A stretch of 32,000 bases of DNA from Candidatus Thorarchaeota archaeon (GTDB lineage Archaea; Asgardarchaeota; Thorarchaeia; Thorarchaeales; Thorarchaeaceae), in contig SHMX01000001.1 in the NCBI GenBank assembly GCA_008080745.1, forward strand, positions 1 to 32,000, written 5' to 3'. The number at the start of each line of letters is the position of its first letter. The first letter of the stretch is position 1. Of this stretch, positions 3,101-24,802 are shown one piece after another. The notes beneath the pieces were generated by a model. The model ran no database searches, was not told the DNA's origin, and saw only the letters and a program-made list of their open reading frames with translations. Position numbers and translations under genes: made by a program.

Positions 3101-6100
3101 CTTCATCTTGTTGATGGAGAAACCGCTGATGAGATAGGAAACTACTCAGGAGGTGTCCGAATTAATCTTGCATCATACAACGCAAGTTCAACGGAAATCC
3201 AAGGCCTATCAATCAAATGGACAACTGGTACCGATACTTATGTCGTAGACATCACAAATACTTTGTCGATTGGCACTTATGTCATATATCTCAATGTCAG
3301 CTATGACAATATAGCACCATACTACAACTATCGTGTTGTAGAGGTTACATTCTCTATACGAAAACACTCCACAGAATTACAATTATCGGATCCCGCAGCA
3401 AGTGTTGGATATGGGCTGAACTCAACATTCGAGCTTACTTATTTCGATCTAGATACTAGTGACCTCGTTTCTAATGCTGTTCTCAGCATAACTAATACAA
3501 GCTTGGCCGGTTACTGGGATATTGTGCCAGGGGGAGATGGTACCTATCAAATTAGGATCAATACCACAGTATTTGGTGGTTTTGGGACTTTTTGGGTAGA
3601 AGTAGAAACCCAAAACTCCGGATCTCTGGTTAACTATGCTGATACAACCATCATGGTAAGAGTATATGTTCGAGAGAGATACACCTCACTAACTTATGAC
3701 CCAGTAGCTACAGTAGGGTATACAGATAATGTGACTATCACACTCTACTATACCGCAACAGATAGTGATACGGGTATAACTAATTCCTCCAACAGTCTGT
3801 TTATTTGGGTGAATCAAACAACATACTATCTCACTGATGGTGTGGAAGATGGTTCATATGTAATTGAGATTCCCGCCAATCTCTTCATAGCATTCCAAGC
3901 TACCTATGTTAGGATAAATACAACATACTATGGCGAACCATACTACCAGAATCAGAGTATTGTAATTCAGTTCTCAGTTAGAGGCACATCAACAGAATTC
4001 TCTTGGAATCCAAGTGATCCAGTACCATATGCAGATATTGCAAACATTACTGTGTATTACGGAGATAGCGACTCTAACATTCCTGTCGGAGGGGCTTTGG
4101 GTGTAGATATTGATGTTAGCGTAATATGTGAAACTCAACCAAGTCTGGATACCTCTAATACAGATATATTGCAAGTATTCCAAGGAGATAACACTTCTAG
4201 ATATGCAACCTTCTTTATCATCATAAATACATCTTATCTTGATAGTACCCAAACCTATAGCTTTAGAGTGACTATTGATTGGATTAATCCAGCTCAAGAA
4301 CCATATTATCAAGATCAGAATGACAAGCTAATTTCACTGACTGTTAGGAGTCGGGATACAGCAGTTCCACAGATTCGAGCTGATGCAATTCCATACGGTG
4401 AAACTGCAACAGTACTACTCGAATATGTAGATTTAGATGCCGAAGGATCTCTAGTTCCAAATGCAAGTCTTGTAATTTCTGTACTGGATGGTGTTAGTTA
4501 TTCAGTAGATTATACTCCAACAGGAGATGGATTCTACACTATCTATATTGAAACGGCAGGAACAGGCCTTGTTGGAACAACACAGTTCAATCTAACAGTT
4601 ACTTGGAATGGAGTACCATTTTATGAAAACCAGACTAATGTGGTTGTTTTCATTACTGTAAACTTCAGAACACCAATAATGGAGATCGACTACCCACAAA
4701 GCACTCCATACCTGGATAATGTAACATTCTCAATCTATCTTCAAGATAGTCATTCTCTAAACTATATCAATAATAATGAATCATTTTTCACCGCCACTTT
4801 CGTTAGCCCAAGCATAGCTAGTCAACCAGTGATAACATTCATTGGTTCAGGAGAATATACAATCACCTTCGATACCGAAGAGATTGGTCTAGTAGGATCT
4901 TGGATTATGGAGATCACCTTTGATCATTCCGGGAATGATCCGTATTATTCGCTTATTTCTAGGAATATCTCGGGTACGATTAGGGAGAGAGCAACAAATC
5001 TCGATTATGACCCAGCTTCAGCTACTCCTTACGGAGAGTACATTATCTTCAACATGACATTTACTGATGTTGATTCAAATTCACCAATCAGTACAGGTCA
5101 AGTATATCTTGAAGGGATAGGAACTTCTGAAGTGCTTGAGAACGGGGTCAACTATGACTATCAGTATCTAAGTAATGGAATTTACTTGGTCAATGTTAGT
5201 AGTATTGCTCTGGGTGTGCCAGATTCATACTCAGTAATCGTCACCATGAATTCCACTGCAGATTGGTATCTTGCGGAGAGAATTAGAACACTTACTCTAA
5301 AAGTATCCTATCGTCCTGTGGAGTTATCAACTTCTGCACCAGATACAACATACTATGGAGATGTAACATTCTTCACAATGACACTAATTGACATTGGTGA
5401 TGAATCAGGCTTGGATGGAATGCAATCGTATTTCACTATCACCTTCACAACTCCAAGTGGCCTTTCAAATAGTAGTATTAGCATCGTAGATATTGGAAAT
5501 GGAGAATACAATGTAAGCTTTGATACCGATATATTGAACGAACTAGTAAATTACAAGGTAAGCATAGTATTCAATGCGCCATATACACCATCATATTGGG
5601 CATCCACTTCGCCTAAATTAGTGACTGGCCGTGTATCTACAAGACCGACCCAGCTATCATACGATGTTACAAGTACAACACCCTACCTGAACAACGTTAC
5701 AATATCACTCGAATTCATTGATGCTAACACAGCGGTGGGAATAGCAGGGACAACAATGATTGCGACCTGTTCAGGAGCTGCAACACCTCTTGTTGCAAAT
5801 ACAAACTACTGGATTTCAGAGGGTAGTACTGGTGAATATATGCTACTAATTGATAGTACTGCACTAGGAAACATTGGAGACTTTAGTATCACCGTTTCAT
5901 CCGAGTACTATGGTGTACCATTCTACCAGAACAGAACTGTGTCTATCACAGTGCAAGTACGCGAGAGGGCCACCCGACTAACCTATACACCACCAGCAGA
6001 GGTTCCATATGGAAACAACCTTACTATCACTTTGAAGTACTATGACGTTGATGCAGGATTATTAGCAATCGAAGATGCTGCATCTCAAATAGCATTGGAA

Positions 6101-9100
6101 ACAATCAATGGAACTCTGGTAGACAGCTCGTATTATATTGTTGAGTGGATATCTAGCAGTACTTACTACATGTACATTAATACCTCAAAACTAGCAATCT
6201 ATGGTCACTATGAACTTGTAATAACTTCAACAGGAGATATTGCAAGTCATTATGATGACCAAACAATATCTCTAGAAGCCGATGTACGTGCTAGAAATAC
6301 CCAATTAACTGCTGCACCAATTGGTCAAGTCAGTTATACAGAAAATGCAACTGTCACACTGTATTATACTGATAAAGATGCAAATAGCGGCGTTAGCAAT
6401 ATAACATACGGAATTGATGTTACTCTTAATGCCTCCATCATGTGGTGGATTGAAGAAGTTACACCAGGAACATTCAAACTAAGAATCAATGCAACTGATT
6501 TGGGTGCTACAGGTACCTTCGACTATGAGGTCACTTTCACGTGGATTAATGGAGTCCCATTCTATGAGAATCGTACTCTGGTATTCACGATTACAGTAAC
6601 CGATTCTGAAGCCATGCTAAGTTATATCCCATCACCTCACGTACCAATTGGTGATAATATCACCATTATTTTGGATTATAGCGATAGTGCGACTGGTGAT
6701 TTGATTTCCAACAACACCTATGGTGTTATTGAAATCACAATAACTTCATTAAATACAACACCGCAAGGTCCATTCCAGTATTGGATCGAGGAAACTGCAA
6801 GTGGTTATGTTGTAACCATTAACAGTACTCCATTCTGGACTACTGGTAATTTGGTGTTTGTCGTAGATATTGATTGGACGGGAGGTTTGCCATACTATCC
6901 AGATATTCTAGGTACCGAAATCAGTTCTGTTGTTAGAGGAATATACACTCAAGGCTTTGCAGATGCACCAGATCCAGGTACCGTTCCTATTGGAGACTCC
7001 ACTCTTGTAAATGTGACATATTATGATCTCGATCATGATGATGTTATTACAGGTGCAAGTATTTCCAGTGATTGGCCATACGGATGGACATATGAGATGT
7101 TACCAAATGGTAAATTCAATGTGACTTTGCACACCGCGGGTGTATCAGTTACTGGAAAACTAACAGTCACATTTACGTTCAATAGAACATTCTATCAGAC
7201 AAAGAGTATTGCAGTATATATAACAATCAGACTAATCAGCACTTCATCAGTTGCTAGTGTTCCAGAGCCATCAATTGTGCCAGCGGGTGATAATGTCACA
7301 TTAGAAGTGACCTTTACTGATAACGACCATCAGGTCAATATAACAACTGGAAGTATCACTACTAATTGGGCATACGGATGGACGTGGGAACGCGTTCCAA
7401 ATGGTGGATTTATTGTAACATTAATGACTGAGAATATCACTAATCTAATCAAATACACGGTGACATTCACTCTGACCAATGACAGTTGTCTCTCTGCAGA
7501 ATCGAGTACAAAATTCCAAGTGCGAAGGATTCAGACATCTATAAACGCAGATGTCCCACCCACCTTAGTGGCTGGACAGAATGTGACAGTCACCATCACA
7601 GTGACTGACCTTGATCATACTACTGGAGTTGAAGATGCTACCATTCTAACTACTGCTCCAGATGGTACGTATCAGATTGTGGAGATTGGTGGTGGAGATT
7701 ATGAAATCGAATTCTACCTTTGGGATGAGGGTTATGGAACATTTACTTATGATGTAAGTGTAACGAAGTCAAACTTCGAATTCGCATCAACTACAATCGA
7801 TATGGATCTTCGCCAAGTAAGAACTGATATCTCCACACCCACAACCACACTTGTCCTCAATTGGAGTACATCTTTTGAACTCTCAATAAATTATGAGAAT
7901 CTTGATGTTGGTGGATTAGTTGAAGAGGCAAATGTGACGGCTGAATTAGCAGGTGTAACTTACACTCTGACATCCAATACAACATATTACAACATTATAA
8001 TCGATACTTCAGCTGTAAGAGTAGGAACCTATATCATAACCGTCAATGCTAATAAGACAAACTATGAGAGTCGAATTCTCCAAGTCACACTAGTTCTTTC
8101 TGTTCTTGAAACTGATTTCATTAGTACTGATGGATTTTATTCCTACTCGATTGTTAGTGGTGAACTAGTGAACCTTACCGTTTACTACAGCACAATTGCA
8201 TTTGGAACAGGAATTGATACTGCTACTATCACATACAACTGGGATTATGGCAGTGGTGTTCTCACAACAACTGGCGCCCCAGGATACTACAGTACTATTG
8301 TTAATAGTACGGGTGCTGAGATCAATACATACACACTCTACGTGCGGGCCAATAAAACGAACCATGCTGAAGCAAGTATTTACTTCAGTATCGAAGTTGG
8401 GCTTGTAGAAACAGATTTAGCACCTCTAACCTCAGTCACAGTATCTGTGGTTTATGGTGAAACGGCAGATATTGTTGCGAACTTTACTAACCTCAATCTG
8501 GAAGAGCCAGTAATCGGAGCTACCCTTACCTTCAAGTTTGCTGATGCCGATTATAATGGAAGCCTAGTTGAAACTTCAGATGGAATTTACAGCACAACCG
8601 TAGATTCATCCAATCTCTATGCTGGTTCATTCACAATCTATGTCATTGGAATTAAGCCAGGCTATGAGACCGGACTTCTAATCATGTATCTTGAAGTTTC
8701 AAAGATTGATACTACTGTATCCCCACTGAATGCGTCGCTGACGGTATTCTACCAGCAATCTGCAACATTTTACGTCAACTATACTGATATGCACAATAAT
8801 TTGCAGGTAGAGAATGCAACTGTTGAATTCAGGTGGTTTGGTGGTACAGGTACATTAGAAGAGATTGGCAATGGAATCTACCGAGCTACTTTCGATAGTT
8901 TTGAAGTTGGACCGGGAGTATTTAACATCCATATTAGTGCCATCAAAGATAACTACTATGCACGAACAACTTCAGTGACCCTCGAGGTGAAAGAAATCTC
9001 AACTGAGATGGTGGTCGAAGATGTATATTACATCCCTGTTGGGGATACCGTCACAATTTCGGTAATGTTCAATGACACAACATACGGAAGACCCATTATT

Positions 9101-10237
9101 GATGGAATTGGTGTAGCAGTCTGGATATTTGGAAATCCAGCTCTCAATGTCACTGGAAATGGCAATTACACCTTTACTGTCGCTGGAAACATTGCAATAG
9201 ATTCCTATGATGTAACATTCATACTTAGTAAAGTCAATCACACTACTGCTACTGCGAGGGTTACAGTGGTTGTTCGTGAGATTCAGACCTCCTTAGAAAC
9301 CCTCACAGGTACAGATTTTGTGCGAGGAACAGTGGGAGAAAGAATTGAATTCACTGTGGTCTATATGGATACAGATCACAACCTGCCAATTACTGGTGCA
9401 ACCTTGACCATCATAGAGAGCGAAGATGTCATAGGTGAAGACCAATATTCTGTTGTTGAAGGCGCTGAACCTGGTCAATACATTATCGCGTTCACAATTC
9501 AGACCGAGGGCGAATTTGATATCGTTCTAAAAGCAGAACTTGGTGATAACTATGATGATCAAGAAATGCAGTTGACAGTCATTGTGCAACAAGTTGCTGG
9601 TGATCCATTAGTAACCTCAATGACTTATGGTTTCGGAATTGGAATGTTCATCCTCTTAATAGGAGCGGTATACTACTTCAGAGTCTATAGCGTGCCCAAA
9701 ATGGTCCGTTGGCTCAACAAGATGATAAAGTCAGTGGGCAAGGGCAAGATACCCGAAGCCGCTCCTGTGCGAGGACGAGATGAAGTGCTCCAAGAGATAG
9801 TGAATACTGAACTTGCAGTAATGGGTGTTTCCAAACCGATTGATGAGATTCCCGCTCACACTATTGATCTCAAAATACCCGAGTTGGATGCGCTCCTTGA
9901 AGAATTAGCCGAAATCACAGGACTCTCTGATGAGGATGTTGAGGTATTCCGGCAAGATCTCTTCACTATGAAACCAAGTGAAAGACCAGGATTTGTTATG
10001 GAGGTTATCAAGCAAGAGAGAGCACGTCGAGCAAAGGATCTAGAAGAGAAGGAGAAAGGAGTTCCAGAAGAGGATCAAGTGGAAGCTACTCCCGAAGACC
10101 TAGAGGACATGCGTACTCGGCTTAAGTCACTTGGACTTGCTGATGATGACATCGATGTTATGGTAGAACAGGCCAAAGGTCTATCTAAAGCAGAGATGGA
10201 AGCCATCATCAGTGAAATTGAGAAGCAGCTAGGATAA
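134..10237 (+). CDS. Giant single-pass cell-surface protein with about 30 Ig-like/beta-sandwich repeats, a C-terminal TM helix and a ~180-aa cytoplasmic tail (5' end probably incomplete)
   Basis: 3367-aa ORF rich in Thr/Ser/Tyr/Val. A motif of type (Y/F)xDxD...I.(G/N)A recurs about every 100-115 aa (e.g. YTDVDHNIGLSGA, YYDLDHDDVITGA, YMDTDHNLPITGA). Contains DNGDGTY-type turns and very many N-x-S/T sequons. A hydrophobic segment YGFGIGMFILLIGAVYYF (~9625-9680) is followed by a basic stretch and a charged helical tail. No signal peptide at the GTG start. Confidence 0.9.
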   Translation: MTAESPGFFSDTSSTVSISIREHSLLLIVQQSANTPWGTNSELTITIRDLDDADNKINEGNLTSITIGSQIFTSTEWIFDDSGLYTQLTITYVSNNLAVGTHSGISTSLSVGSAYTNTASTLDLTISSHRLQISAFTSTDTPWSWTTNITVSLTDLDNLGNTVSENNVTGIIIDGIIFTSSNWTYSSGSFIMTLNTTDWTIGSGTYSVSVTTNDSVQKFYSDGSTNVVIEIASHDLLVDVTRPQATPWSDNTTIAIQLGDANNASLVISSDNITQIVIDGQIFTSWTYSNGQFTVEVDTDDWSIGSYSITIEIYTSGSGVTKFYLDNTGGTTIQIRERYSEAYIPAPDSVPKGDNLTFYVEFTDRDASTLVDLDTIQLNGTDLTQGIDFWVYQEGTGYYRVLLKTTSVPIGNREVTVTCSLANYEDASVVLRYRVRLTDTDAVASGYRFDVPVGTNVSFTITYTDVDHNIGLSGAGVAVNGSFAWSYTESNGVYSIDLETLDSTILGEYKLRFNFTLSGYEDAYVIIVLTVKTHSTYLSYDEPPVDTGMGDNITIGFFYEDVSLNIGISNDTGAISVTVTNSSGTVIFYVEDNTALGTGHYYVLIPADQFGGVGTYSFTTFFNWTDGEKYSNLTKSFSVDITGTATDLSIEVAPQSVYYGDMINFTLFYSTELGTGIENNTGNVLAYAIVTTGGQSISQSDFVITNLTGGYYQFVLDSDLFTAAGQYNVRTYLNWTPTASPYNENQTLSLTITILVRTTLIDLVPPQNTAFDENATFTFYYRDTSNDSIVIENSSQLSVTLTNAGIIYWLEYDSGTAEWTVTVDTSSVGDLGTVYLQLEVTWAGAPFFQNQTKSVKLEVTARPTQLTYSPPTPTYFNSNTTIQFSYYDLIDDSTSNMNGSTLVITSSGLDLTGNYTVIDNGDGTYTIYLNTTAFLEPNTFQIVAEITYTGTRYEANATVSFSLKVLPRAILATADPVGNTAWEADVTITLHLVDGETADEIGNYSGGVRINLASYNASSTEIQGLSIKWTTGTDTYVVDITNTLSIGTYVIYLNVSYDNIAPYYNYRVVEVTFSIRKHSTELQLSDPAASVGYGLNSTFELTYFDLDTSDLVSNAVLSITNTSLAGYWDIVPGGDGTYQIRINTTVFGGFGTFWVEVETQNSGSLVNYADTTIMVRVYVRERYTSLTYDPVATVGYTDNVTITLYYTATDSDTGITNSSNSLFIWVNQTTYYLTDGVEDGSYVIEIPANLFIAFQATYVRINTTYYGEPYYQNQSIVIQFSVRGTSTEFSWNPSDPVPYADIANITVYYGDSDSNIPVGGALGVDIDVSVICETQPSLDTSNTDILQVFQGDNTSRYATFFIIINTSYLDSTQTYSFRVTIDWINPAQEPYYQDQNDKLISLTVRSRDTAVPQIRADAIPYGETATVLLEYVDLDAEGSLVPNASLVISVLDGVSYSVDYTPTGDGFYTIYIETAGTGLVGTTQFNLTVTWNGVPFYENQTNVVVFITVNFRTPIMEIDYPQSTPYLDNVTFSIYLQDSHSLNYINNNESFFTATFVSPSIASQPVITFIGSGEYTITFDTEEIGLVGSWIMEITFDHSGNDPYYSLISRNISGTIRERATNLDYDPASATPYGEYIIFNMTFTDVDSNSPISTGQVYLEGIGTSEVLENGVNYDYQYLSNGIYLVNVSSIALGVPDSYSVIVTMNSTADWYLAERIRTLTLKVSYRPVELSTSAPDTTYYGDVTFFTMTLIDIGDESGLDGMQSYFTITFTTPSGLSNSSISIVDIGNGEYNVSFDTDILNELVNYKVSIVFNAPYTPSYWASTSPKLVTGRVSTRPTQLSYDVTSTTPYLNNVTISLEFIDANTAVGIAGTTMIATCSGAATPLVANTNYWISEGSTGEYMLLIDSTALGNIGDFSITVSSEYYGVPFYQNRTVSITVQVRERATRLTYTPPAEVPYGNNLTITLKYYDVDAGLLAIEDAASQIALETINGTLVDSSYYIVEWISSSTYYMYINTSKLAIYGHYELVITSTGDIASHYDDQTISLEADVRARNTQLTAAPIGQVSYTENATVTLYYTDKDANSGVSNITYGIDVTLNASIMWWIEEVTPGTFKLRINATDLGATGTFDYEVTFTWINGVPFYENRTLVFTITVTDSEAMLSYIPSPHVPIGDNITIILDYSDSATGDLISNNTYGVIEITITSLNTTPQGPFQYWIEETASGYVVTINSTPFWTTGNLVFVVDIDWTGGLPYYPDILGTEISSVVRGIYTQGFADAPDPGTVPIGDSTLVNVTYYDLDHDDVITGASISSDWPYGWTYEMLPNGKFNVTLHTAGVSVTGKLTVTFTFNRTFYQTKSIAVYITIRLISTSSVASVPEPSIVPAGDNVTLEVTFTDNDHQVNITTGSITTNWAYGWTWERVPNGGFIVTLMTENITNLIKYTVTFTLTNDSCLSAESSTKFQVRRIQTSINADVPPTLVAGQNVTVTITVTDLDHTTGVEDATILTTAPDGTYQIVEIGGGDYEIEFYLWDEGYGTFTYDVSVTKSNFEFASTTIDMDLRQVRTDISTPTTTLVLNWSTSFELSINYENLDVGGLVEEANVTAELAGVTYTLTSNTTYYNIIIDTSAVRVGTYIITVNANKTNYESRILQVTLVLSVLETDFISTDGFYSYSIVSGELVNLTVYYSTIAFGTGIDTATITYNWDYGSGVLTTTGAPGYYSTIVNSTGAEINTYTLYVRANKTNHAEASIYFSIEVGLVETDLAPLTSVTVSVVYGETADIVANFTNLNLEEPVIGATLTFKFADADYNGSLVETSDGIYSTTVDSSNLYAGSFTIYVIGIKPGYETGLLIMYLEVSKIDTTVSPLNASLTVFYQQSATFYVNYTDMHNNLQVENATVEFRWFGGTGTLEEIGNGIYRATFDSFEVGPGVFNIHISAIKDNYYARTTSVTLEVKEISTEMVVEDVYYIPVGDTVTISVMFNDTTYGRPIIDGIGVAVWIFGNPALNVTGNGNYTFTVAGNIAIDSYDVTFILSKVNHTTATARVTVVVREIQTSLETLTGTDFVRGTVGERIEFTVVYMDTDHNLPITGATLTIIESEDVIGEDQYSVVEGAEPGQYIIAFTIQTEGEFDIVLKAELGDNYDDQEMQLTVIVQQVAGDPLVTSMTYGFGIGMFILLIGAVYYFRVYSVPKMVRWLNKMIKSVGKGKIPEAAPVRGRDEVLQEIVNTELAVMGVSKPIDEIPAHTIDLKIPELDALLEELAEITGLSDEDVEVFRQDLFTMKPSERPGFVMEVIKQERARRAKDLEEKEKGVPEEDQVEATPEDLEDMRTRLKSLGLADDDIDVMVEQAKGLSKAEMEAIISEIEKQLG

Positions 10238-15244: not shown

Positions 15245-16660
15245 TTACTCGTTATTTTCTAGTTCCTTTACGGGATTGGTTTCTTCAACATATTTCCAAA
15301 GCATATATACACCAATTAGACCAAGAAACGAAGCTAACCAGAACGGTACAACAAGTCCCTCGATAATAAACGGACCAATAGGAAACAACATCAACGAGAA
15401 ATATCCAAACAGCCACCCTCCAGCAAGGGGGCCAATTGTAGCTCCAGCATTGAAGAAGGCTTGAATGGTACCAAACAACTTACCTCTTAGATTCCATGGA
15501 ACAACATCAGCTTGAATCGCACGCATAGCAGGCTGAGAAACTGCAAAAGAAGCATTCTGAGCAACCCAAAATACACTGGTTTGCGCCAAATTGGCTGTGA
15601 GGGGAAGTGCAAAATAGCTCACCCGTGCGGTGGCAGCACCCCATACTGCAAGTCCTTTTCTGCCTTTTTTATCAGCATATCTACCAGCAGGAATGGAAAA
15701 GAGCATACCGATAGCCCCAGCCCCAGATATCACTAGGCCAATAAGACCGATATCAGTCGTAATCTTGCTCATGAGGAATAATTGAAAGATTGGTTGACCG
15801 AGACCCATAGCAATCCCATTCATTACCGCCATCACATATAGCGCATGAATCATCTTTCTTGTTCGATCATTCATTTCCGTGTCTTCTACCTCTCCAATAT
15901 CGTCAATTAGAGATTTATCATGAATTATTGGTTCGGATTTATCTACTTCTTCATTAGACTCACCAGTAGACTGCGTCTTCCCTGGAGAGGTCTCATTGAG
16001 AACAATTGCAGTCAGAATAGCCGCTGGTAACGTGATTAGGGCTGCAATAAAGTAGGGTACACGGAAAACATCAGGAACAGGAAGCAGAAGAATATCTCTA
16101 CAGAAATTATAGAGGAGGCCACCTAATCCAGGACCTGCAATAAAACCTACGTTAGAAACCACCATGTAGAGACCTAATCCTTCCCCTCTTCTTTCAATAC
16201 CTATGATATCCATGAGAGCTGCTTCAGCAACCGGCCAAGTCATGGCAGACACTACACCTTGGAGTGCTCTGATAATTAACATATGAATCCAATTCTGAGC
16301 TAGACCAAAGAGTAATAGTAGGACAACATATCCTAGCAATCCAGTATTTAGGATGGGCTTTCTGCCAAAGGTATCACTAACTCCACCCCAATATCGAGCG
16401 AGAAGAGTTCTCGTACCCATGAATGATGCCATCATTACTCCAAGTATCAAAGAGAACTCAGCAACAATCTCAGGAGGTATGATATACTCTGGTCCAGGGG
16501 GTTGGGTCAATTGTCCTTCAAGCGCAAACAGGTAAAAAGACATAGAGGGAGCAATGATACCAAATCCAAGCATGATAAGCATAGCATCAAGCGCAATAAT
16601 CATGACTTTTGGATTAGTGTAAAGCTTCTGGGTTGTTGGAACAGAAACAATCTCACTCAT
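15245..16660 (-). CDS. MFS transporter (DHA1/TetA-like drug:H+ antiporter type)
   Basis: About 12 TM helices. Motif A occurs twice (GGVSDTFGRK, GRYADKKGRK), with IRALQG, a motif C-like segment (GFIAGPGLGG) and an acidic central loop. Confidence 0.92.
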   Translation of the reverse strand: MSEIVSVPTTQKLYTNPKVMIIALDAMLIMLGFGIIAPSMSFYLFALEGQLTQPPGPEYIIPPEIVAEFSLILGVMMASFMGTRTLLARYWGGVSDTFGRKPILNTGLLGYVVLLLLFGLAQNWIHMLIIRALQGVVSAMTWPVAEAALMDIIGIERRGEGLGLYMVVSNVGFIAGPGLGGLLYNFCRDILLLPVPDVFRVPYFIAALITLPAAILTAIVLNETSPGKTQSTGESNEEVDKSEPIIHDKSLIDDIGEVEDTEMNDRTRKMIHALYVMAVMNGIAMGLGQPIFQLFLMSKITTDIGLIGLVISGAGAIGMLFSIPAGRYADKKGRKGLAVWGAATARVSYFALPLTANLAQTSVFWVAQNASFAVSQPAMRAIQADVVPWNLRGKLFGTIQAFFNAGATIGPLAGGWLFGYFSLMLFPIGPFIIEGLVVPFWLASFLGLIGVYMLWKYVEETNPVKELENNE

Positions 16661-16838: not shown

Positions 16839-18560
16839 ATGCCAGACCCACGAAATCCACTCATAGTTCAATCAGACAAGTCAGTACTTCTCGAGGTTGA
16901 TAATCCTCTTTATGAAGATGCACGAGATTCTCTCGCGCGATTTGCTGAACTTGTAAAGAGTCCAGAATATGTTCATACCTATAGAGTAACACCACTCAGC
17001 CTATGGAATGCTGCTGCAATGGGTATGACTCCAAATGATGTTATCGAGGCTCTGGAAAAGTATGCTAAATATCCTATCCCAGGAAACATCTCACGAGAAA
17101 TAGTAGATTACATGAGCAGATATGGAATGCTCTCCTTATACAAAGAGGGGCCAGATTTACTGCTATTATGTGATAATCAAGATCTTGCGGAAGAAATCGG
17201 AGCTAGTAAAAAAGTTCAAGAATTCATTATCGACAGAGTGGATGCTACAACTTTCAGAGTAGATGCTAGGCAACGGGGATTTCTCAAGTATGCTTTGATT
17301 GAGATAGGACATCCAGTAGAGGATCTTGCAGGGTATATTGAAGGTGAACCTTTACATTTCGAGCTCCGAGAAAAAACACTTGGTGGCAAAGACTTTGATC
17401 TTAGAAGCTACCAAAAAGATGCTGTGGCGATATTTTATGCAGGTGGTGGAGAAAGAGGTGGATCAGGTGTTGTGGTTCTCCCCTGTGGTGCTGGCAAAAC
17501 TATGGTAGGCATTGGAGCAATGGAAAAACTCCAAACATCAACGATAATTCTATGTCCAAATGTTGTAGCAGTTAGACAGTGGATAACAGAGCTCTTGGAT
17601 AAGACAACCTTGACGCCCGACCAAATAGGAGAATATACCGGAGCAAGCAAAGAAGTACGTCCTGTTACGGTTGCTACTTATCAAATTTTGACCTGGCGTG
17701 ACTCACGGAAATCAGATTTCGAACACTTTGGTATATTCGAAGCACGGAATTGGGGGCTAATAATATACGATGAAGTTCATCTTCTTCCAGCTCCCGTTTT
17801 CAGAGTAACTGCTACGATTCAGGCCACTCGGAGATTGGGTCTAACCGCCACTTTAGTCAGAGAGGATGGTAAAGAGGAAGATGTGTTCAGTCTTATTGGT
17901 CCCAAGCGATTTGACATGCCATGGAAACAATTGGAAGATCAAGGGTGGATTGCAACAGCCATATGTTATGAGATTAGGATTGATTTAGATGATAGCCTAC
18001 GACGGAAATACGCATTAGCAGATGACAGACGGAAATATCGGATTGCTGCTGAGAATCCAATTAAGATTGATATCATCAAAGAATTAGTAGAACATCACAA
18101 AGAAGACAATATTCTAGTAATTGGAATGTATCTACGACAGTTGAATCAAATCTCTGAAGAAATTGATGCTCCGCTCATTACGGGTAAGACGCCAAATGAG
18201 GAGCGAGAGCGACTATACAAAGCCTTTAGAGAAGGAAAAGAGAAAGTACTAGTGGTTTCTAAGGTAGCCAACTTTGCGATAGACCTTCCAGATGCTAATG
18301 TTGCTATCCAAGTTTCAGGTACTTTCGGTTCCAGACAAGAGGAGGCACAGAGATTAGGACGAATTCTTAGGCCAAAGACAGATGGTAGTTTTGCGAGGTT
18401 CTATTCAATTATAACGAAAGACACTAGAGATATGGATTTTGCTGCCAAACGTCAACTGTTCCTAACAGAACAGGGATATCAATATGTGATAGCATCAGGT
18501 GATGAACAGATCTGGAAAAAACCACCCGAATCATTCTTTGAACCATCAAGACTCGGGTGA
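16839..18560 (+). CDS. xpb: XPB/Rad25 (ERCC3-like) SF2 DNA helicase/translocase, long form with N-terminal Helicase_C_3-type domain
   Basis: N-terminal PLIVQSDKSVLLEV...HTYRVTPLSLWNA domain. Walker A LPCGAGKT, DEVH, LTATLVREDG (XPB RED motif), FAIDLPDANV and motif VI QRLGRILR. Confidence 0.95.
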   Translation: MPDPRNPLIVQSDKSVLLEVDNPLYEDARDSLARFAELVKSPEYVHTYRVTPLSLWNAAAMGMTPNDVIEALEKYAKYPIPGNISREIVDYMSRYGMLSLYKEGPDLLLLCDNQDLAEEIGASKKVQEFIIDRVDATTFRVDARQRGFLKYALIEIGHPVEDLAGYIEGEPLHFELREKTLGGKDFDLRSYQKDAVAIFYAGGGERGGSGVVVLPCGAGKTMVGIGAMEKLQTSTIILCPNVVAVRQWITELLDKTTLTPDQIGEYTGASKEVRPVTVATYQILTWRDSRKSDFEHFGIFEARNWGLIIYDEVHLLPAPVFRVTATIQATRRLGLTATLVREDGKEEDVFSLIGPKRFDMPWKQLEDQGWIATAICYEIRIDLDDSLRRKYALADDRRKYRIAAENPIKIDIIKELVEHHKEDNILVIGMYLRQLNQISEEIDAPLITGKTPNEERERLYKAFREGKEKVLVVSKVANFAIDLPDANVAIQVSGTFGSRQEEAQRLGRILRPKTDGSFARFYSIITKDTRDMDFAAKRQLFLTEQGYQYVIASGDEQIWKKPPESFFEPSRLG

Positions 18561-19364
18561 TTCTATTCGGGTAATTTTCCGGGCTAGTTCTTTTATATCA
18601 TCAAGGGAAAGACGTTCAATACCATCCACTCCAACCTCAAATGTAACCCAAATGGGAGTATGCGGTGCTCCCTTTACTTTTGTAACTCTAAACTGTTTTA
18701 TGAGAATGCCCGCTTTCATGAATGCTGGTTCATGTCGAGTATCTATGATAATATCACTTGAATATGCAATCATATCATCATACGCACTGAATTGTTGCAG
18801 ACCAGTATGATACGTCGCCCAAAATGGAACACCATATTCCTTGCAGAATGTAGCACGCCATGCCTTGAGAGCATTTACTGCTTTGAAGGGGTGGGATTGC
18901 AGAAAAAGTTCAGTAATACTATCGGCAAAAACACCACCGATATTAGATTTATTCTCTTGTAAGACGGAATGTATTGCATCACTTATCTCATCAGGTTCCG
19001 TGGGATTTCGAACCAGTGTAGTATGCTCAAATTTTGCCGTTCGGCTAAGAATTCGGTTTGAAAAACAGTCAATTAGGTGAATAGAGTTCTTTTCGAGCAT
19101 GGATTCATAATCCCACCCCAGAGAGCACAGATTTTGTAAGATAGATACTGGAGTGTCTTCAAAACAGATGAAAATTACCTTTTTTCCGGAATCCATCATC
19201 CTATTTGATATCTCATTAAGCAGTACAGATTTGCCACCCCCACCAGGACCTCGAATAACCCCAAACGCGTTGGAGGGAAACCCCTTTGGAACTTCATTGT
19301 CTATTGCCTGAATATTGGTACTGTATAATTCACGTCCCTGTTCAAGGAGGTCTTTCAAGCTCAT
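18546..19364 (-). CDS. Single-domain RecA-superfamily ATPase (KaiC-like/aRadC/RAD55 type)
   Basis: Walker A GPGGGGKS, FICFED, LIDCFS, Walker B-like VFADSITE and C-terminal FRVTKVKGAPH...FEVGVDGI. Confidence 0.85.
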   Translation of the reverse strand: MSLKDLLEQGRELYSTNIQAIDNEVPKGFPSNAFGVIRGPGGGGKSVLLNEISNRMMDSGKKVIFICFEDTPVSILQNLCSLGWDYESMLEKNSIHLIDCFSNRILSRTAKFEHTTLVRNPTEPDEISDAIHSVLQENKSNIGGVFADSITELFLQSHPFKAVNALKAWRATFCKEYGVPFWATYHTGLQQFSAYDDMIAYSSDIIIDTRHEPAFMKAGILIKQFRVTKVKGAPHTPIWVTFEVGVDGIERLSLDDIKELARKITRIESPES

Positions 19365-19599
19365 TGATAAATTCCCTCACTAATTCAAAAGTATTAAACC
19401 CTAGATTCTTCATAAGACTTGTTGGGTTGCAAGTAGTTGCAGAAAACGTGGACATTGTTGGACAGAATCTGATATGTGTGTATATAGGTGGATTCAGAAT
19501 GAATGTCTGGTCGAAAGACATACCATCGCTGACCGCGAAAAAGTCTCATCCAGTACCGTTACCTGGGAGGACAACGCTTTGATGTACAAGTTTGTCCAA

Positions 19600-20577
19600 C
19601 TAACAATGGACGATTTTAGTACGAGTATCAAATTGTTGAAATTTCATCAAAAGGTAACTTTCAAGAGATTTGACGATCTCAGGTGTCATGAGGGGTTTAA
19701 TAACGATTCCACAGTGGATGTCTACTAATCGAGTGAGTGTCCAAGTGATTAAAGATAAGAGGGCCAATGGAATCAGTTTTTCCAATTCTTTTTGTTGTAT
19801 TTCATCAAGGCCAGGAAAGGTACTATAATCCGCGATTGGTCCGTCTCCCTGAGAGTACATATATGCCAAGTCATAAAGAGGGTTACCTCTGCAGATATCA
19901 CCAACATCTAGCAGCTGGACATTGGATTCAATAAAGACAATATTACCTTCATGTAAATCAGAGTGCATAACAAGTCTGTTCCACTTGGGATAGTCTCCTA
20001 ATTCCCCTAAGAACTCCAGTATTGCTTTTTGATATCTCGAAATATACCCTCTCAAATGTGTTGGTATAGTTCCGATGTTTTCGATTGATTTTTCAAACTG
20101 GTCAAAAAGATGGAGAAGGTAATCTGAAGCTCTTGGAAATTCAGCTAAATCTTCGATAGTAACATTAGAAAAACGATTAAGTGAGTTCTTCAGAGTCCTC
20201 AGGGATTGCTTGGGAATAGAATCAACCCTCTTGTATATTCTTCCCTCCACATATTTTCTAATGAAGAAAGGTGTTCCGAATCTGTCCTTTAGTACCCCGT
20301 ATTCTATTGGGTCAGGAGAAAGATTTTCTCTATATAATGCTAGGGAATGGATGTATTCATCTTCATAGGGATTAGTTTCGAAAAAATTTTGCAGAACAGG
20401 GAGTTTAATTATTACTTGATAAGATGATGTGAAACCATGTAAGTTGATATTAGACCAGCCTCCTACCGGATGAGATTTGATAGATTCCAAAGAAATTTCT
20501 TTTTCGGTAGATTCGTTTAGTAATAATAGGAGCTCGTCCATATTATGTCCATGATATTCTATACCATTCATTCTCAA
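19600..20577 (-). CDS. Aminoglycoside phosphotransferase/choline kinase-like (APH family) protein; true start may be the ATG at 20541
   Basis: GGWSNINL glycine loop, VIIKLP, Brenner motif HSDLHEGNI, LLDVGD and GNPLYDLAY. Confidence 0.85.
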   Translation of the reverse strand: MRMNGIEYHGHNMDELLLLLNESTEKEISLESIKSHPVGGWSNINLHGFTSSYQVIIKLPVLQNFFETNPYEDEYIHSLALYRENLSPDPIEYGVLKDRFGTPFFIRKYVEGRIYKRVDSIPKQSLRTLKNSLNRFSNVTIEDLAEFPRASDYLLHLFDQFEKSIENIGTIPTHLRGYISRYQKAILEFLGELGDYPKWNRLVMHSDLHEGNIVFIESNVQLLDVGDICRGNPLYDLAYMYSQGDGPIADYSTFPGLDEIQQKELEKLIPLALLSLITWTLTRLVDIHCGIVIKPLMTPEIVKSLESYLLMKFQQFDTRTKIVHC

Positions 20578-20617
20578 ACAAGGATAAATTTTCCTAAACT
20601 ACTTAAAGACTAGCCAA

Positions 20618-20917
20618 TTGAACAATGATATGAACGGACGAAACATTCTATTAATTTTAGTACATCTTTTCAGAAAAAGGGGAAAAGAGGTCAATGTTAA
20701 CGAGGCAGTAGAGTACCTCTCGTTCAGATGGAGATATGGTACTCCTAGCAATATTAGAAGACTTCTTTCATTAGCGCTTGAAAAAGATATGATTTCAAGA
20801 GAGGGAAACATTATTTCCGCCAAATTTGACTTTAATATACAGCATCTTTCTCCAAATCAAACTGCAGTTTTTCGGGATAAGGTGATGATAACCAGTACAA
20901 CGGAAGAGATGCGCTAA
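20618..20917 (+). CDS. DUF2240-family archaeal protein (N-terminal winged-helix-like domain only)
   Basis: Pattern LVHLFRKRG...EAVEYLSFRWRY.TP...RRLL.LA.....I.REG..I.AKFD matches the DUF2240 N-terminal domain as I recall it. Confidence 0.65.
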   Translation: MNNDMNGRNILLILVHLFRKRGKEVNVNEAVEYLSFRWRYGTPSNIRRLLSLALEKDMISREGNIISAKFDFNIQHLSPNQTAVFRDKVMITSTTEEMR

Positions 20918-22029
20918 GACTCAATTTCTTGAGCAATCTTTGTAAATGATGCTAAACAAGCTGAAAGATGGATAAAGGGATTCTTTCCCTGAGTGATTCG
21001 TGAGTCGATTTCTGCAAGTCGCTCAATCAATTTGGTTAACACTAGATGTGAGAGGGGGCGACTAAGAAGATCATCCCTCATCTCCGAAACAACTTCATCG
21101 GTTGTATACTGCTCTAATCCAAGTAATTCCATCATAATCTTTCGAGCTTTTTCGTGTTGTCCATCGAAAGCAAGCGAAACCATTTGATGCACACGTTTCT
21201 GTAAATGGGTTTCGGATGCAGCATAAACTGCATCTTCATCCACACTGTTATTGCTAGCAGCGGCAATTTGTAAAATATGAAGTGCACGTCTGAGGTTTCC
21301 TTGAACGTTTCGAATGATAGCTTTGATTGCGAGTTGAGTTATATCTACGTTCTCCTTTTTTGCCACGGATTTGATTAGTTGTTCCGTATATTCGACAGAA
21401 GCAGAGGGAAAATGCAAAACCACACATCGAGAAATTATGGCAGGAGACCAACCAGCCAGGGTAGGTGTAATGAGTATAAAACGACAAACCTCATTGTAAA
21501 TCTCCATCGTTCTTCGAAGAGCTTGCTGCATACTGTAACTCAATGCATCGGCTTCATCGAGAACAAGAATCTTTACCTTTGCATCAGAAACAGTATAGGT
21601 AGAAGCAAAGAAACGAATTGCTTCTTGCAAGAGTTGCCGTCGTGAAGGGCTCCTAGAGATTCCCCTCGTTTTAAGAGATGCTTTCGCCTGACGATAGATT
21701 ACAGACATATATTCATCAAGAGGGGTTCTATCACTTCGGTCAAGCTTTGCTAGTGCTTTAACATCTCGTTTTGCATGGGAGAGGCTATAATTTACAATCT
21801 CTCGAATATTGAGATGCATATAGTTGGAGCTTAAATCATCACCAAGAAATGCACGGGCAAAAACCTCCGAGGCTGCAGTCTTACCAGTTCCCTCGGGTCC
21901 ATAGAGAATGATATTTGGGCATATAGATGCTTTTGAGAAATCTTTGAGATGGCCTAGAGCAGATTCAGGTCCAAAGAAATCATCCCATTTCTTCGGCCGA
22001 TATTTTATACTCCAAAGAACTGGTTCCAC
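20914..22029 (-). CDS. rfcS: Replication factor C small subunit (clamp loader) with a long insertion between Walker A and Walker B
   Basis: WSIKYRPKKW, GPEGTGKT, ILVLDEADAL, QQALRRTME, IISRC (SRC arginine finger), GNLRRALHILQ and a C-terminal helical domain ending ...IHLSACLA. Confidence 0.92.
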   Translation of the reverse strand: MEPVLWSIKYRPKKWDDFFGPESALGHLKDFSKASICPNIILYGPEGTGKTAASEVFARAFLGDDLSSNYMHLNIREIVNYSLSHAKRDVKALAKLDRSDRTPLDEYMSVIYRQAKASLKTRGISRSPSRRQLLQEAIRFFASTYTVSDAKVKILVLDEADALSYSMQQALRRTMEIYNEVCRFILITPTLAGWSPAIISRCVVLHFPSASVEYTEQLIKSVAKKENVDITQLAIKAIIRNVQGNLRRALHILQIAAASNNSVDEDAVYAASETHLQKRVHQMVSLAFDGQHEKARKIMMELLGLEQYTTDEVVSEMRDDLLSRPLSHLVLTKLIERLAEIDSRITQGKNPFIHLSACLASFTKIAQEIES

Positions 22030-22142
22030 ATACTACACCTAGATTTTGTGAAGGATGGAACATTATAACCTTGTTCGTTTCTGACAAGCCTAAAAATCGC
22101 GACCGCAAACGTAAATCTCTTAAATAACAAATCTCAGGGGCC

Positions 22143-23897
22143 TTGTTTGCAAATTGCACTGTTGGGAGACCTGTACCCGAAATGACAGATTCACTTGAAA
22201 AAGACCTCGAACACATGTTTAGAGAAGACCTGATGGTAGCATGTCAATATTGGGGAATAGAACTTAGTGGAACCAAGTCTGGAACCCAATTAACCGAACT
22301 ATTAGCGGAAAGAATGAGGAACAAAGAAGCCAGATTACGGATTTTCGCAACATTCAATCAATTAGAATATGACCTCTTAGGAATGTTAGCTCTAAATGGA
22401 GGCGCTATGAGTTATGACCGCTTAAAACCATATAGAAAGATCTATAGCTATGGTCAGTTGAATCAAACCGAGAGAGACCTCCGAAAAAAGGGTATTATCA
22501 TTAGAAGAATGATGTCCCGGCTTACTGAATACGGAAGAGAAGTAGCCGAATTCAAAATTATAGATTTCTTCATACCACATCTAAAGAAGTACTTCTCACA
22601 AAAACCGGAACACGACTCCGAAAAACCAAAACATGTCAGAGATATGACAAACGAAAGGGATTCACTACTGATTGATATCCTGTTACTCGCATCATATTTG
22701 GAAAAACATGAAGTCCATATGACGACAAGTTGGGAATTTCCGAAAAGAGAGATTGAACATATCAAAGAACCGATGTCTGATCCCAGTGAGGAGCGGTTCG
22801 AAACTGTGCAGAAGATTGCAAGAAAGGCAGGGGCATATCAGATTGTTGATGAGGATCGATTAATTCCTGGGAATATCTTGTCTTTGTTTGGTGGATATCA
22901 AGAAGAGGTTACTAAGAAATTATTACTATCAGCATTAGGCCGCACACGAGCAATTTGGGCAACACCAGACCAACCAACAGAATACACGTTGAATCTTGTT
23001 ATCTGTCGGCTTAGAGAGAGTAAAAAAGATGAATGGATTCAGGTAGATGAGATGAAGGGCTGGATTCGAAGTGAACTCTTTCAAGATAATCAACCACTGA
23101 AATGGATTCAAGTTGATGAAGATAGAGTAGCCATAGCACTTGAAACCCCCATCTTGCTTGGATTAGTCGAGGCAGCATACAAGAGAAAGAAGCTCATTGC
23201 AGTCAAATTGACGGATATAGGAGAAGAAGTCTTAGCAAAGAAGAAGTCAAAAAGGATTCGAGGACGTGATACCTTCATAGTTCAACCAAACTTCGAGTTA
23301 ACAGTATTCACAACGGAGATGGACTATAGTAAACTCTACAAGCTCATGCTTCTGACAGAGCCCGTAAAAACAGACGTAGTAAGTACTTTCCGTATAACTG
23401 ACCAATCCATTTTCCAAGCAATTGAAGCGGGCATGCGGGAGAATGAGATTATTGAATTTCTTGAAGAAGAGAGTAGTAAACCAGTTCCGGGCAATGTTAC
23501 ACGATCTATCAAGGACTGGACCTCACAAACCACTTTTGCAAAAATTTCGGAGGTCACTATCTTTGAAACAGAGAACGAGAGAGAGCTCGAAGATTTACTC
23601 CTATTGAAAGACTTTAGTAAATATGTTGTCAGAAAAATAGGCCCAACTGTAGTAATTGTAACAGGAGACATGGAAGAACTAAGCGAAACCATGAAGGAAC
23701 ACAAATGTAAGATAAAAATTGCAGGAAAAGAAGAGCATCAGGCACCTAAAATTGAGGGTACTGGAATAGCAGAAAAAATTCTCCTATATGGAGATTCAAC
23801 AGATACAACGGTTCCTGAAGCGTGTCTAGGTTGTCCCGCGGTTAATTCCTGTAACCGAGTACTTCGTAGACGTACTGAAGAGAAAAGGAAACAATAG
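22143..23897 (+). CDS. XPB-partner-like protein with a Helicase_C_3 (p52/Tfb2 clutch-like) domain; likely start ATG at 22182
   Basis: Helical/WH-rich N-terminal region, then VKLTDIGEEVL...FIVQPNFELTVF...DVVSTFRITDQSIFQAIEAG....EIIEFLEEESSKPVPGNVTRSIKDW (Helicase_C_3 signature), a short alpha/beta domain and a terminal CxxCxxxxxC. Confidence 0.8.
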   Translation: MFANCTVGRPVPEMTDSLEKDLEHMFREDLMVACQYWGIELSGTKSGTQLTELLAERMRNKEARLRIFATFNQLEYDLLGMLALNGGAMSYDRLKPYRKIYSYGQLNQTERDLRKKGIIIRRMMSRLTEYGREVAEFKIIDFFIPHLKKYFSQKPEHDSEKPKHVRDMTNERDSLLIDILLLASYLEKHEVHMTTSWEFPKREIEHIKEPMSDPSEERFETVQKIARKAGAYQIVDEDRLIPGNILSLFGGYQEEVTKKLLLSALGRTRAIWATPDQPTEYTLNLVICRLRESKKDEWIQVDEMKGWIRSELFQDNQPLKWIQVDEDRVAIALETPILLGLVEAAYKRKKLIAVKLTDIGEEVLAKKKSKRIRGRDTFIVQPNFELTVFTTEMDYSKLYKLMLLTEPVKTDVVSTFRITDQSIFQAIEAGMRENEIIEFLEEESSKPVPGNVTRSIKDWTSQTTFAKISEVTIFETENERELEDLLLLKDFSKYVVRKIGPTVVIVTGDMEELSETMKEHKCKIKIAGKEEHQAPKIEGTGIAEKILLYGDSTDTTVPEACLGCPAVNSCNRVLRRRTEEKRKQ

Positions 23898-23968
23898 GAT
23901 ATTGCAAGAGGGATATGCTTAAAGGTTCGATTCAATGCTCTTCGCCTGTCAAAGGCAGGTTTAATGTC

Positions 23969-24802
23969 ATGTCGGAGGAAACTAATGAACCAGGAATGGT
24001 CATGAAATTCATCCAAGATTATCGGTTTAAGATGCTTATTCCCGAGCTATTGGTTGTATTCGGCGTTTGGTACCTATTACCGGAATCACTCTACTCGAAT
24101 GTTTATGAATTTCTTGGCCCATTGATGTATATATGTCAGCCATTATTCTTCATGCCCACAGGTTGGCTGGTATTCCTAACTGCATTCACACTTCATGGGA
24201 TATATCCATTGGATAATTATCACGAAGGAAAGATTCCAGATCTTCCCAGAGCAGCTGTTATTATGATTGGAATCTCATTTCTATTTCTTCCCGTCCTAGT
24301 ATTCTTCCAAATGATTGGATACTATATGACAGAGATGACAGAATTCATATCAAGAAATCCATTCTGGGAAAGAGTAGAGAGTCTTGGAGACTTGCTCTTC
24401 TATGCAGGTCCTATGTTCTTTGCAGGTTTACAGATGTGGCTTCTTATCCCAGTATTTTTCCTAAGTCAAAGCATTGATGGAATTCATAAAATTGCACATC
24501 ATGAAACTTCTAACGAGAAGATCACCTGGATATTCTACTTTCTCTTTCCAGTGGTAATTCCAATATTCTTCAGTCCCATTGAGATATTGGCAATGGCGGC
24601 TCTATCAATCCCTGCATTTGCATTCTATTCGTATATTAGGCCATATTACACCTATGTTACTGCAATCCATACTCTAACCTTTGCAGTACTTGTAGTTGTA
24701 GCATTTATTCTAGGACCTAATCTTCCATTGATAGAAATATGGATGCCTGGATTTAGACCAGAACTACCAGCAAGGGATCTTCCCATGTGGATACAATGGT
24801 AA
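23969..24802 (+). CDS. Hypothetical polytopic membrane protein (about 7-8 TM); ORF track start 23915, more plausible ATG at 23969
   Basis: Multiple long hydrophobic segments, co-oriented with the upstream gene, no recognisable family motif. Confidence 0.7.
   Translation: MSEETNEPGMVMKFIQDYRFKMLIPELLVVFGVWYLLPESLYSNVYEFLGPLMYICQPLFFMPTGWLVFLTAFTLHGIYPLDNYHEGKIPDLPRAAVIMIGISFLFLPVLVFFQMIGYYMTEMTEFISRNPFWERVESLGDLLFYAGPMFFAGLQMWLLIPVFFLSQSIDGIHKIAHHETSNEKITWIFYFLFPVVIPIFFSPIEILAMAALSIPAFAFYSYIRPYYTYVTAIHTLTFAVLVVVAFILGPNLPLIEIWMPGFRPELPARDLPMWIQW

Follow-up and report, generated by a model that had tools for sequence, protein, structure and literature searches.

In eukaryotic transcription factor IIH (TFIIH), XPB is accompanied by p52 and p8 (Ssl2, Tfb2 and Tfb5), and p8 pairs with the C-terminal domain of p52 (PMC6422496). 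Reviews from 2026 state that archaea have XPB and XPD, without other TFIIH subunits or a TFIIH-like assembly (PMC13153155, PMC13024598), and short-form XPBs are devoid of the clutch-type N-terminal module (PMC3353954). Here, we analyze positions 1 to 32,000 of contig SHMX01000001.1 from a Candidatus Thorarchaeota archaeon (assembly GCA_008080745.1), a stretch that we call the window. It is part of contig 1 of a 3.16-Mb genome that is 98% complete, and the closest relatives of its proteins are all labelled Thorarchaeota. On one strand of the window, ~3.6 kb apart, lie a gene for a long-form XPB and a gene for a second protein, termed here the partner. We hold, with moderate confidence, that the products of these genes correspond, in a prokaryote, to the XPB-p52 sub-module of TFIIH. 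We regard Mycobacterium Rv0861c/Rv0862c as one bacterial case of a long-form XPB next to a 'helicase-associated domain' protein. The literature searched (Helicase_C_3, Rv0862c, and Asgard together with TFIIH) yielded no account of a p52 from a prokaryote.

The two genes and their parts are as follows. Residue numbers of the partner count from the ATG at 22182 (571 aa) unless the 584-aa open reading frame (ORF) is named.

16839-18560, + strand: long-form XPB (ERCC3/Rad25-type superfamily 2 (SF2) DNA translocase), 573 aa; NF045503 873 bits, TIGR00603 354 bits; Pfam Helicase_C_3, ResIII and ERCC3_RAD25_C; Walker A, DEVH and RED motifs
16860-17318, + strand: XPB N-terminal module, a clutch-type domain plus a small alpha/beta subdomain; residues ~8-160; paralogue of partner residues 358-511
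22182-23897, + strand: p52/Tfb2-like partner, 571 aa; ORF open from TTG 22143 (584 aa), probable start ATG 22182
22182-23234, + strand: N-terminal helical region and three winged-helix domains of the partner; residues 1-351; collinear with the winged-helix array of p52 in the model
23262-23534, + strand: clutch-type domain of the partner, core of the Helicase_C_3 match; residues 361-451; VIA, Pfam E 8e-14, Tfb2 profile 281-356
23556-23699, + strand: small alpha/beta C-terminal domain of the partner; residues 459-506 in the model; position of the p8-binding C-terminal domain of p52
23700-23894, + strand: Cys4 basic tail of the partner, specific to the Thorarchaeota order; four conserved Cys (HKC, CxxC, SC) and a basic terminal helix

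The initial annotation, made from the letters of the window, reported a 584-aa protein at the partner locus. That ORF exists (22143-23897), but a start at ATG 22182 agrees with the homologues and with the database record, which corrects the probable protein to 571 aa. As had been described, a second Helicase_C_3-type domain lies ~3.6 kb downstream of the first (residues 379-498 of the 584-aa ORF, E 8.3e-14), with FIVQPN starting at 23274 and SIKDW ending at 23519, and it is followed by a small alpha/beta domain, modelled at ~23556-23699. The same ORF gives a weak match to Tfb2 (E 1e-3).

An AlphaFold2 model of the partner, built from 36 homologues, has a mean predicted local distance difference test (pLDDT) score of 82.7. 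When this model was compared with PDB structures using Foldseek, the top 18 matches were all p52/Tfb2 chains, with XPB chains next, and the best match (8ebs_D, E 1.7e-11) spanned ~520 aligned columns. TM-scores against p52 were 0.3-0.4, with a root-mean-square deviation (rmsd) of ~20 Å, because the inter-domain hinges differ. In VIA, partner residues 51-510 superimposed on residues 41-461 of human p52 (Z 12-14, 340-380 residues), residues 152-507 on p52 145-458 of 7NVV (Z 14.5), and residues 144-508 on the Chaetomium p52 of 6TRS (Z 11.5). The winged-helix array, clutch and C-terminal domain of p52 are all found, over the whole length, in the predicted structure, and the p52/Tfb2 likeness proposed in the initial annotation hence extends beyond the clutch. 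As modelled, the partner is a prokaryotic structural counterpart of p52, collinear with it and without an ATPase domain; its predicted architecture resembles that of p52 throughout, and in the clutch it is a homologue of both p52 and XPB. The Pfam family Tfb2 (PF03849) is matched by 19 of the 36 partner-family members at E ≤ 0.01, and the best scorer (P0211) reaches 38.9 bits, above the gathering cut-off of 34.5, over profile positions 240-357 only.

Within the clutch, partner residues 361-451 superimpose on residues 72-164 of the N-terminal domain (NTD) of human XPB with an rmsd of 1.0 Å (VIA, Z 15.9, 91 residues, 22% identity). Comparison of the two window proteins by hhalign aligned partner residues 358-511 with XPB residues 2-160 over 155 columns (probability 98.9%, E 2e-17). 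This part of the partner is a duplicate, or paralogue, of the XPB N-terminal module. Exactly two Helicase_C_3 domains are encoded in the 98%-complete genome, one in XPB and one in the partner.

The window XPB itself carries, in Pfam order, Helicase_C_3 (residues 8-134, E 1.7e-33), ResIII and ERCC3_RAD25_C. Its score against the NCBIfam model NF045503 (repair_heli_XPB) is 873.2 bits, compared to a cut-off of 610, with residues 7-551 covering profile positions 1-547 of 548, which places it among the long forms. Motifs are intact, with GAGKT at residue 217 (17487), DEVH at residue 311 (17769) and LTATLVRED at residue 335 (17841-17867); both the N-terminal domain and the last of these motifs had been recognized at the outset. 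The window XPB is an SF2 translocase of the bacterial long-form type whose N-terminal part is a clutch-type module, and no short form accompanies it in the window genome. A few other Thorarchaeota genomes keep a short-form XPB (~450 aa) beside the long one (G313:C4:9765-10118, G319:C63:12986-13333).

Beyond the small C-terminal domain, the partner ends in a tail (residues 507-571) that is poorly modelled and finishes in a helix, with low confidence at residues 517-541. Its four cysteines lie in HKC (507-509), CxxC (548-551) and SC (556-557), and are present in 17/17 aligned homologues from the order, sister family included. The bacterial relatives checked have no such tail, and often end in a WYL domain instead. 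We would guess that the Cys4 tail forms a DNA-binding zinc knuckle.

Comparative data bear on whether the partner acts together with XPB. In a sample of 400 Asgard genomes, 86 belong to the order of the window (hereafter the Thor order), 85 of them to the window's family and one to a sister family, and 314 lie outside. The partner is present in 83/85 family members and in the one sister-family genome (84/86 for the order), and every genome that has it also has a long-form XPB where the assembly allows the check. In these ~84 genomes, the two genes nearly always share a contig and a strand, with 3.5-6.5 kb separating them; the XPB and p52-like genes of other archaea and of bacteria are adjacent. 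Within the family, identity is 75-96% for XPB and 60-69% for the partner, which falls to 38% in the sister family. Trees of the two proteins are congruent, both grouping the Thor sequences with the same other archaea. The partner very probably works with XPB.

We also predicted the complex, using full-length XPB and partner residues 260-571 with separate alignments, and three controls. The interface score (ipSAE) was 0.59 (runs of 0.59, 0.57 and 0.60), compared to 0.00 for the best of the three controls, which corresponds to a grade of 'weak support'. Runs shared at least 83% of contacts, and partner pLDDT was at least 68. Of the calibration set, 58/80 solved complexes and 2/110 mismatched pairs attained the mark, with passing scores of 0.60 or less seen in only 7/80 solved complexes and in both passing mismatches. 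One caveat here is that a similar complex, TFIIH, has already been solved, and hence the pass may reflect likeness or memory rather than binding. The XPB-p52-like complex inferred in the initial annotation is accordingly graded, as a predicted physical pairing, weakly supported; the comparative evidence for pairing is stronger than the complex prediction.

Some of these observations could be read differently, with the partner alone serving as a multi-winged-helix DNA-binding regulator or scaffold that has lost XPB binding in Thorarchaeota, the shared domain being a relic of common descent. The 3.6 kb between the genes, filled with genes of opposite strand, would fit such a loss, and so would the complex score in the weak band. 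Individual winged-helix domains of the partner also match ArsR/MarR-type regulators of the winged helix-turn-helix (wHTH) class (VIA, Z 10-11), the euryarchaeal relative P0141 has no XPB within 8 kb, and bacterial relatives often carry WYL, a domain known from regulators. This scenario is, however, difficult to square with co-occurrence across ~84 genomes, in which the partner is always accompanied by a long-form XPB where this can be checked, or with the retention of distance and strand over order-level divergence, down to 38% partner identity. The congruence of the two trees and the 0.00 of the complex controls also argue against it, and we regard it as unlikely.

Pairs of this kind extend well beyond the Thor order. 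A one-genome-per-species scan recovered at least 598 long-form XPB loci (L numbers here denote XPB loci); the best 80 come from >15 bacterial phyla, three Thor genomes and one Methanophagales metagenome-assembled genome (MAG). Of the non-Thor loci, about half also encode a p52-like protein, whose gene in nearly every case comes immediately after XPB, in keeping with the earlier statement that XPB and partner pairs occur in bacteria too. In the phylum of the Methanophagales MAG (Euryarchaeota), Helicase_C_3 is found in 25/401 sampled genomes (~6%), about 15 of which have it twice. At six Chloroflexota loci (L038, L039, L045, L049, L062 and L063), two or three tandem p52-like paralogues follow XPB.

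At many of the bacterial loci, a gene for a 65-90-aa protein sits between XPB and the p52-like gene. The C-terminal domain of the partner is homologous to these free-standing proteins (hhalign 97.1%, E 5.8e-11; hidden Markov model (HMM) E values down to 2e-9). Examples are listed here.

L042:2374-2595, L044:7722-7943, L051:6747-6974, L021:7807-8001, L086:7768-8031, L076:4005-4256 and others: bacterial small p8-like genes

On the basis of gene position and of homology to the partner C-terminal domain, the bacterial small protein is a candidate p8/Tfb5 counterpart. It is modelled with a pLDDT of 78 as beta-alpha-beta-beta-alpha-beta, and its structural matches are generic ferredoxin-like ones (Foldseek E ≥ 0.09, VIA Z ≤ 6.5), with no p8/Tfb5 chain among the matches listed. 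Neither the small bacterial proteins nor the partner C-terminal domain matched any Pfam family. Two Methanophagales-type partners (L023:2498-4570 and L018:2789-4519) carry the small C-terminal domain twice in tandem, as if a p8-like unit had been fused, and the L023 partner ends in a WYL domain.

Both a free-standing small gene and a tandem C-terminal domain are absent from the Thor genome. Two custom HMMs run over genome ORFs of at least 35 aa found nothing like the C-terminal domain beyond the partner's own. Tfb5/p8 (PF06331) has no significant match in the genome (best E 0.28), and Tfb2_C (PF18307) has none in the genome or in residues 468-584 of the 584-aa ORF. Of the structural likeness to Tfb2 and Tfb2_C/Tfb5 that had been suggested as a check, the p52 match by Foldseek was obtained and a Tfb2_C or Tfb5 family match was not. 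Tfb4 (p34) and Ssl1 (p44) are likewise unmatched in the genome, the Tfb4 search having little power as its control was silent in every control genome. Two XPD-like genes are present on other contigs, unlinked to the locus.

Several points weigh against our view of the two genes as a counterpart of XPB-p52. The genes are neither adjacent nor part of one transcription unit, with three genes of opposite strand between them. The complex score falls in the weak band, and no interface was returned. By sequence, the partner reaches only 18.5 bits against Tfb2, below the cut-off of 34.5, over profile positions 281-356 of 358; positions 1-280 have no sequence match, so the whole-length likeness to p52 is one of predicted structure. 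No p8-like gene whose product could bind the partner C-terminal domain was found in the genome, and the repair role discussed below is one that we infer.

If the XPB-p52 reading is correct, then by analogy with solved TFIIH the partner clutch and the XPB N-terminal domain would form a pseudo-symmetric dimer. The partner C-terminal domain would rest on RecA2 and tune ATPase activity and translocation, and the winged helices and tail may tether the motor to DNA or to other factors. The initial annotation left open whether such a complex opens DNA in repair or in transcription. Archaeal initiation needs no ATP, which makes a role in transcription initiation less likely, and the pair most likely acts in DNA repair. 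There, it might open DNA in place of an XPB-Bax1 pair. Bax1, noted earlier as not adjacent to XPB, has no match (DUF790, PF05626; E ≤ 1) anywhere in the 98%-complete genome, compared to control matches in Haloferax, Sulfolobus and Methanosarcina.

How the Thor order came by this pair is a separate matter. Neither the partner nor any Helicase_C_3 domain was found in the 314 Asgard genomes outside the order (0/314). A short-form XPB is present in 118/314 of these, scoring 60-87 bits against ERCC3_RAD25_C, compared to 165-181 for the long form. The best matches of the window XPB outside the order are bacterial, such as one from Ktedonobacterales (64% identity, 826 bits), and it is 64-66% identical to Chloroflexota XPBs. 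In the XPB trees, the Thor sequences are monophyletic (support 95-97) and sister to the archaeal L018, L023 and Methanophagales L070 (joint support 96-98). Ten short forms from Asgard genomes, whose branch is very long, served to root the tree of the XPB core. Partner sequences from these archaeal lineages also group together, weakly (support 81). A free quick tree placed the archaeal clade among bacteria without strong support, in a bacterial sample biased towards relatives of one Chloroflexota XPB. By the approximately unbiased (AU) test, a tree with all bacteria together was not rejected (p 0.86), and its log-likelihood was 26 units better than that of the free tree.

We dropped the idea that the pair is nested within bacteria, as the AU test (p 0.86) does not reject bacterial monophyly and no well-supported branch forces nesting. 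Acquisition from bacteria, one of the two origins first proposed, is plausible at most. The pair, common to many bacteria and some Euryarchaeota, probably entered or left the Thor order by horizontal transfer, in either direction.

The other origin first proposed was a relation to the ancestor of the TFIIH core. Under this hypothesis, the Thor pair descended vertically in the Asgard stock of eukaryotes, or was donated to the eukaryotic stem, and would be the direct forerunner of the XPB-p52 core of TFIIH. Collinearity of the partner with p52 over its whole length is consistent with this, as are the formation of one clade by the archaeal long-form XPBs (96-98) and the failure to reject a tree with archaea outside bacteria when short forms serve as outgroup (p-AU 0.86). 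For parts of the replisome, a 2025 paper proposes a transfer to the eukaryotic stem with Loki/Thor-related lineages as the source (PMC12680538). The relation to eukaryotes was judged here by comparing scores, since a search for longer proteins gave bacterial XPBs only and our trees hold no eukaryotic sequences. Against yeast Ssl2 and human XPB (PDB), the window XPB scores 299 and 271 bits, which is nearer than it is to short archaeal XPBs (133-156 bits) and a further point for this hypothesis. Ktedonobacterales (301 and 285 bits) and Brevibacillus (303 and 288 bits) do no worse, and against TIGR00603 (rad25) the window XPB (354 bits) falls within the range of six bacterial XPBs (316-361), with other archaeal long forms at 362-389. 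By these sequence scores, the window XPB stands no nearer to its eukaryotic counterpart than do those of bacteria.

The partner tells a similar story, with a Tfb2 score (18.5 bits) below those of several non-Thor relatives (23-39 bits). Restriction of the pair to one Asgard order (with 0/314 genomes outside it positive for the pair or Helicase_C_3 and 118/314 bearing short-form XPB), the identity to Chloroflexota XPBs, eukaryotic scores no better than those of bacteria, and the lack of p8, p34 and p44 matches in the genome also count against descent of TFIIH from the Thor pair. A forerunner of the TFIIH core in this Asgard archaeon is not supported, and we judge such direct ancestry quite improbable. 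A broader version would make an archaeal long-form XPB/p52-like clade, comprising Thorarchaeota and Methanophagales-type Euryarchaeota, the source of the XPB-p52 core of the eukaryotic stem, TFIIH having started out as a prokaryotic translocase of two proteins that served in repair and became linked to the transcription machinery afterwards; this too we consider a long shot. That the XPB-p52 pairing as such predates eukaryotes seems to us quite likely.

The remaining features of the locus are these.

15245-16660, - strand: major facilitator superfamily (MFS) transporter
18546-19364, - strand: KaiC-family ATPase
19600-20577, - strand: APH-type kinase-like protein
20914-22029, - strand: AAA+ protein like the small subunit of replication factor C (RFC), an RfcS paralogue; insertion of ~55 aa between Walker A and Walker B; module membership suggested by synteny only
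22030-22181, no strand: divergent intergenic region of 152 bp (by gene coordinates) between the RfcS paralogue and partner genes; promoters for both presumed
23915-24802, + strand: multi-pass membrane protein, 295 aa; no Pfam match; conserved downstream neighbour

The initial annotation saw RFC and RecA-like neighbours as a DNA-metabolism context. The RecA-like protein is the KaiC-family ATPase, and its gene and that of the APH-type kinase-like protein, both located here between XPB and the partner, are found in some Thor genomes only; being variable, they are not counted as parts of the module. The RFC-like gene (20914-22029) encodes a divergent paralogue of RfcS: its score against NF001679 (227 bits, split by the insertion) is below the cut-off of 303, and a canonical RfcS (441 bits) lies beside RfcL, both on contig 2. 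Its Walker A (GPEGTGKT, residue 44), Walker B (LDEAD, residue 157) and SRC motifs are kept, and it adjoins the partner gene divergently at every Thor-order locus with flank sequence. Non-canonical RfcS paralogues with an insertion (RfcS2-type) have been described in Lokiarchaeales (PMC12680538), and the window paralogue may correspond to these. Downstream, the membrane protein gene starts 18 nt after the partner gene and holds this position across the Thor order, sister family included; a Pfam search assigned it to no known family. The 3' ends of the XPB (+) and KaiC-like (-) genes overlap convergently by 15 nt (18546-18560). A single ORF of 3367 aa (134-10237, + strand) takes up the first 10 kb of the window.

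Gene neighbourhood also bears on whether the locus could be part of a mobile element or of an anti-phage defence system, with an XPB-like helicase as a component. XPB does match PADLOC PbeA helicase models in part (97 bits), and for the KaiC-like neighbour there is faint similarity to defence ATPases. These are matches of generic helicase or P-loop similarity (97 bits compared to 873 for XPB), and the partner, the kinase-like protein and the membrane protein have no PADLOC match. The locus is syntenic across the order beside housekeeping-type genes (MFS transporter, RFC paralogue), and its G+C is flat (0.39-0.43). We rejected this explanation, finding only generic helicase and P-loop matches in PADLOC, and rate it as extremely improbable.

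If real, the conservation of a full-length p52-like partner with long-form XPB, in an Asgard order as well as in some Euryarchaeota and in many phyla of bacteria, would make the regulatory pairing of XPB with p52 older than eukaryotes. It would also offer simple systems of two proteins, without the other eight subunits of TFIIH, for studying clutch control of the XPB motor, and would turn the origin of TFIIH into a phylogenetically testable question. By itself, the pair does not link that origin to Asgard archaea.

Compared to the archaeal short-form XPB-Bax1 system (A. fulgidus, Sulfolobus; PDB 2FWR, 6P4F), the locus shares an archaeal XPB-family helicase core and a presumed role in excision-type repair. 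It differs in the clutch-type N-terminal module of its XPB, which scores only 133-156 bits against the short forms, and in that the 98%-complete genome gave no match to Bax1; short forms occur in other Asgard lineages. Compared to XPB-p52-p8 of TFIIH (PDB 6NMI, 7NVV, 8EBS, 6TRS), the XPB likewise has an N-terminal clutch-type domain, and the partner is non-enzymatic, with winged helices, a clutch homologous to the XPB NTD and a small alpha/beta C-terminal domain, arranged as in p52. Unlike TFIIH, the window genome has no match to p8, p34, p44 or p62, and its XPD-like genes are unlinked. The window XPB (573 aa) is without the eukaryotic N- and C-terminal extensions (human XPB PDB chains have up to 782 residues). 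The Thor partner sequence does not reach the Pfam Tfb2 cut-off, its clutch resembles the XPB NTD (22% identity, rmsd 1.0 Å) more than it does p52, and its Cys4 basic tail lies outside the solved p52 chains, with whole-chain matches ending at p52 residue 458-461. The likely role also differs, being repair rather than transcription. The bacterial long-form XPB pairs differ from the Thor pair in several respects: their genes are usually adjacent on the same strand, often with a 65-90-aa gene between, whereas the Thor genes are 3.6 kb apart and without the small gene, and the bacterial partners are 650-900 aa long and often end in WYL rather than in a Cys4 tail. The XPBs are of the same equivalog family (850-877 bits, all tested) and 64-66% identical, and the partners belong to the same family.

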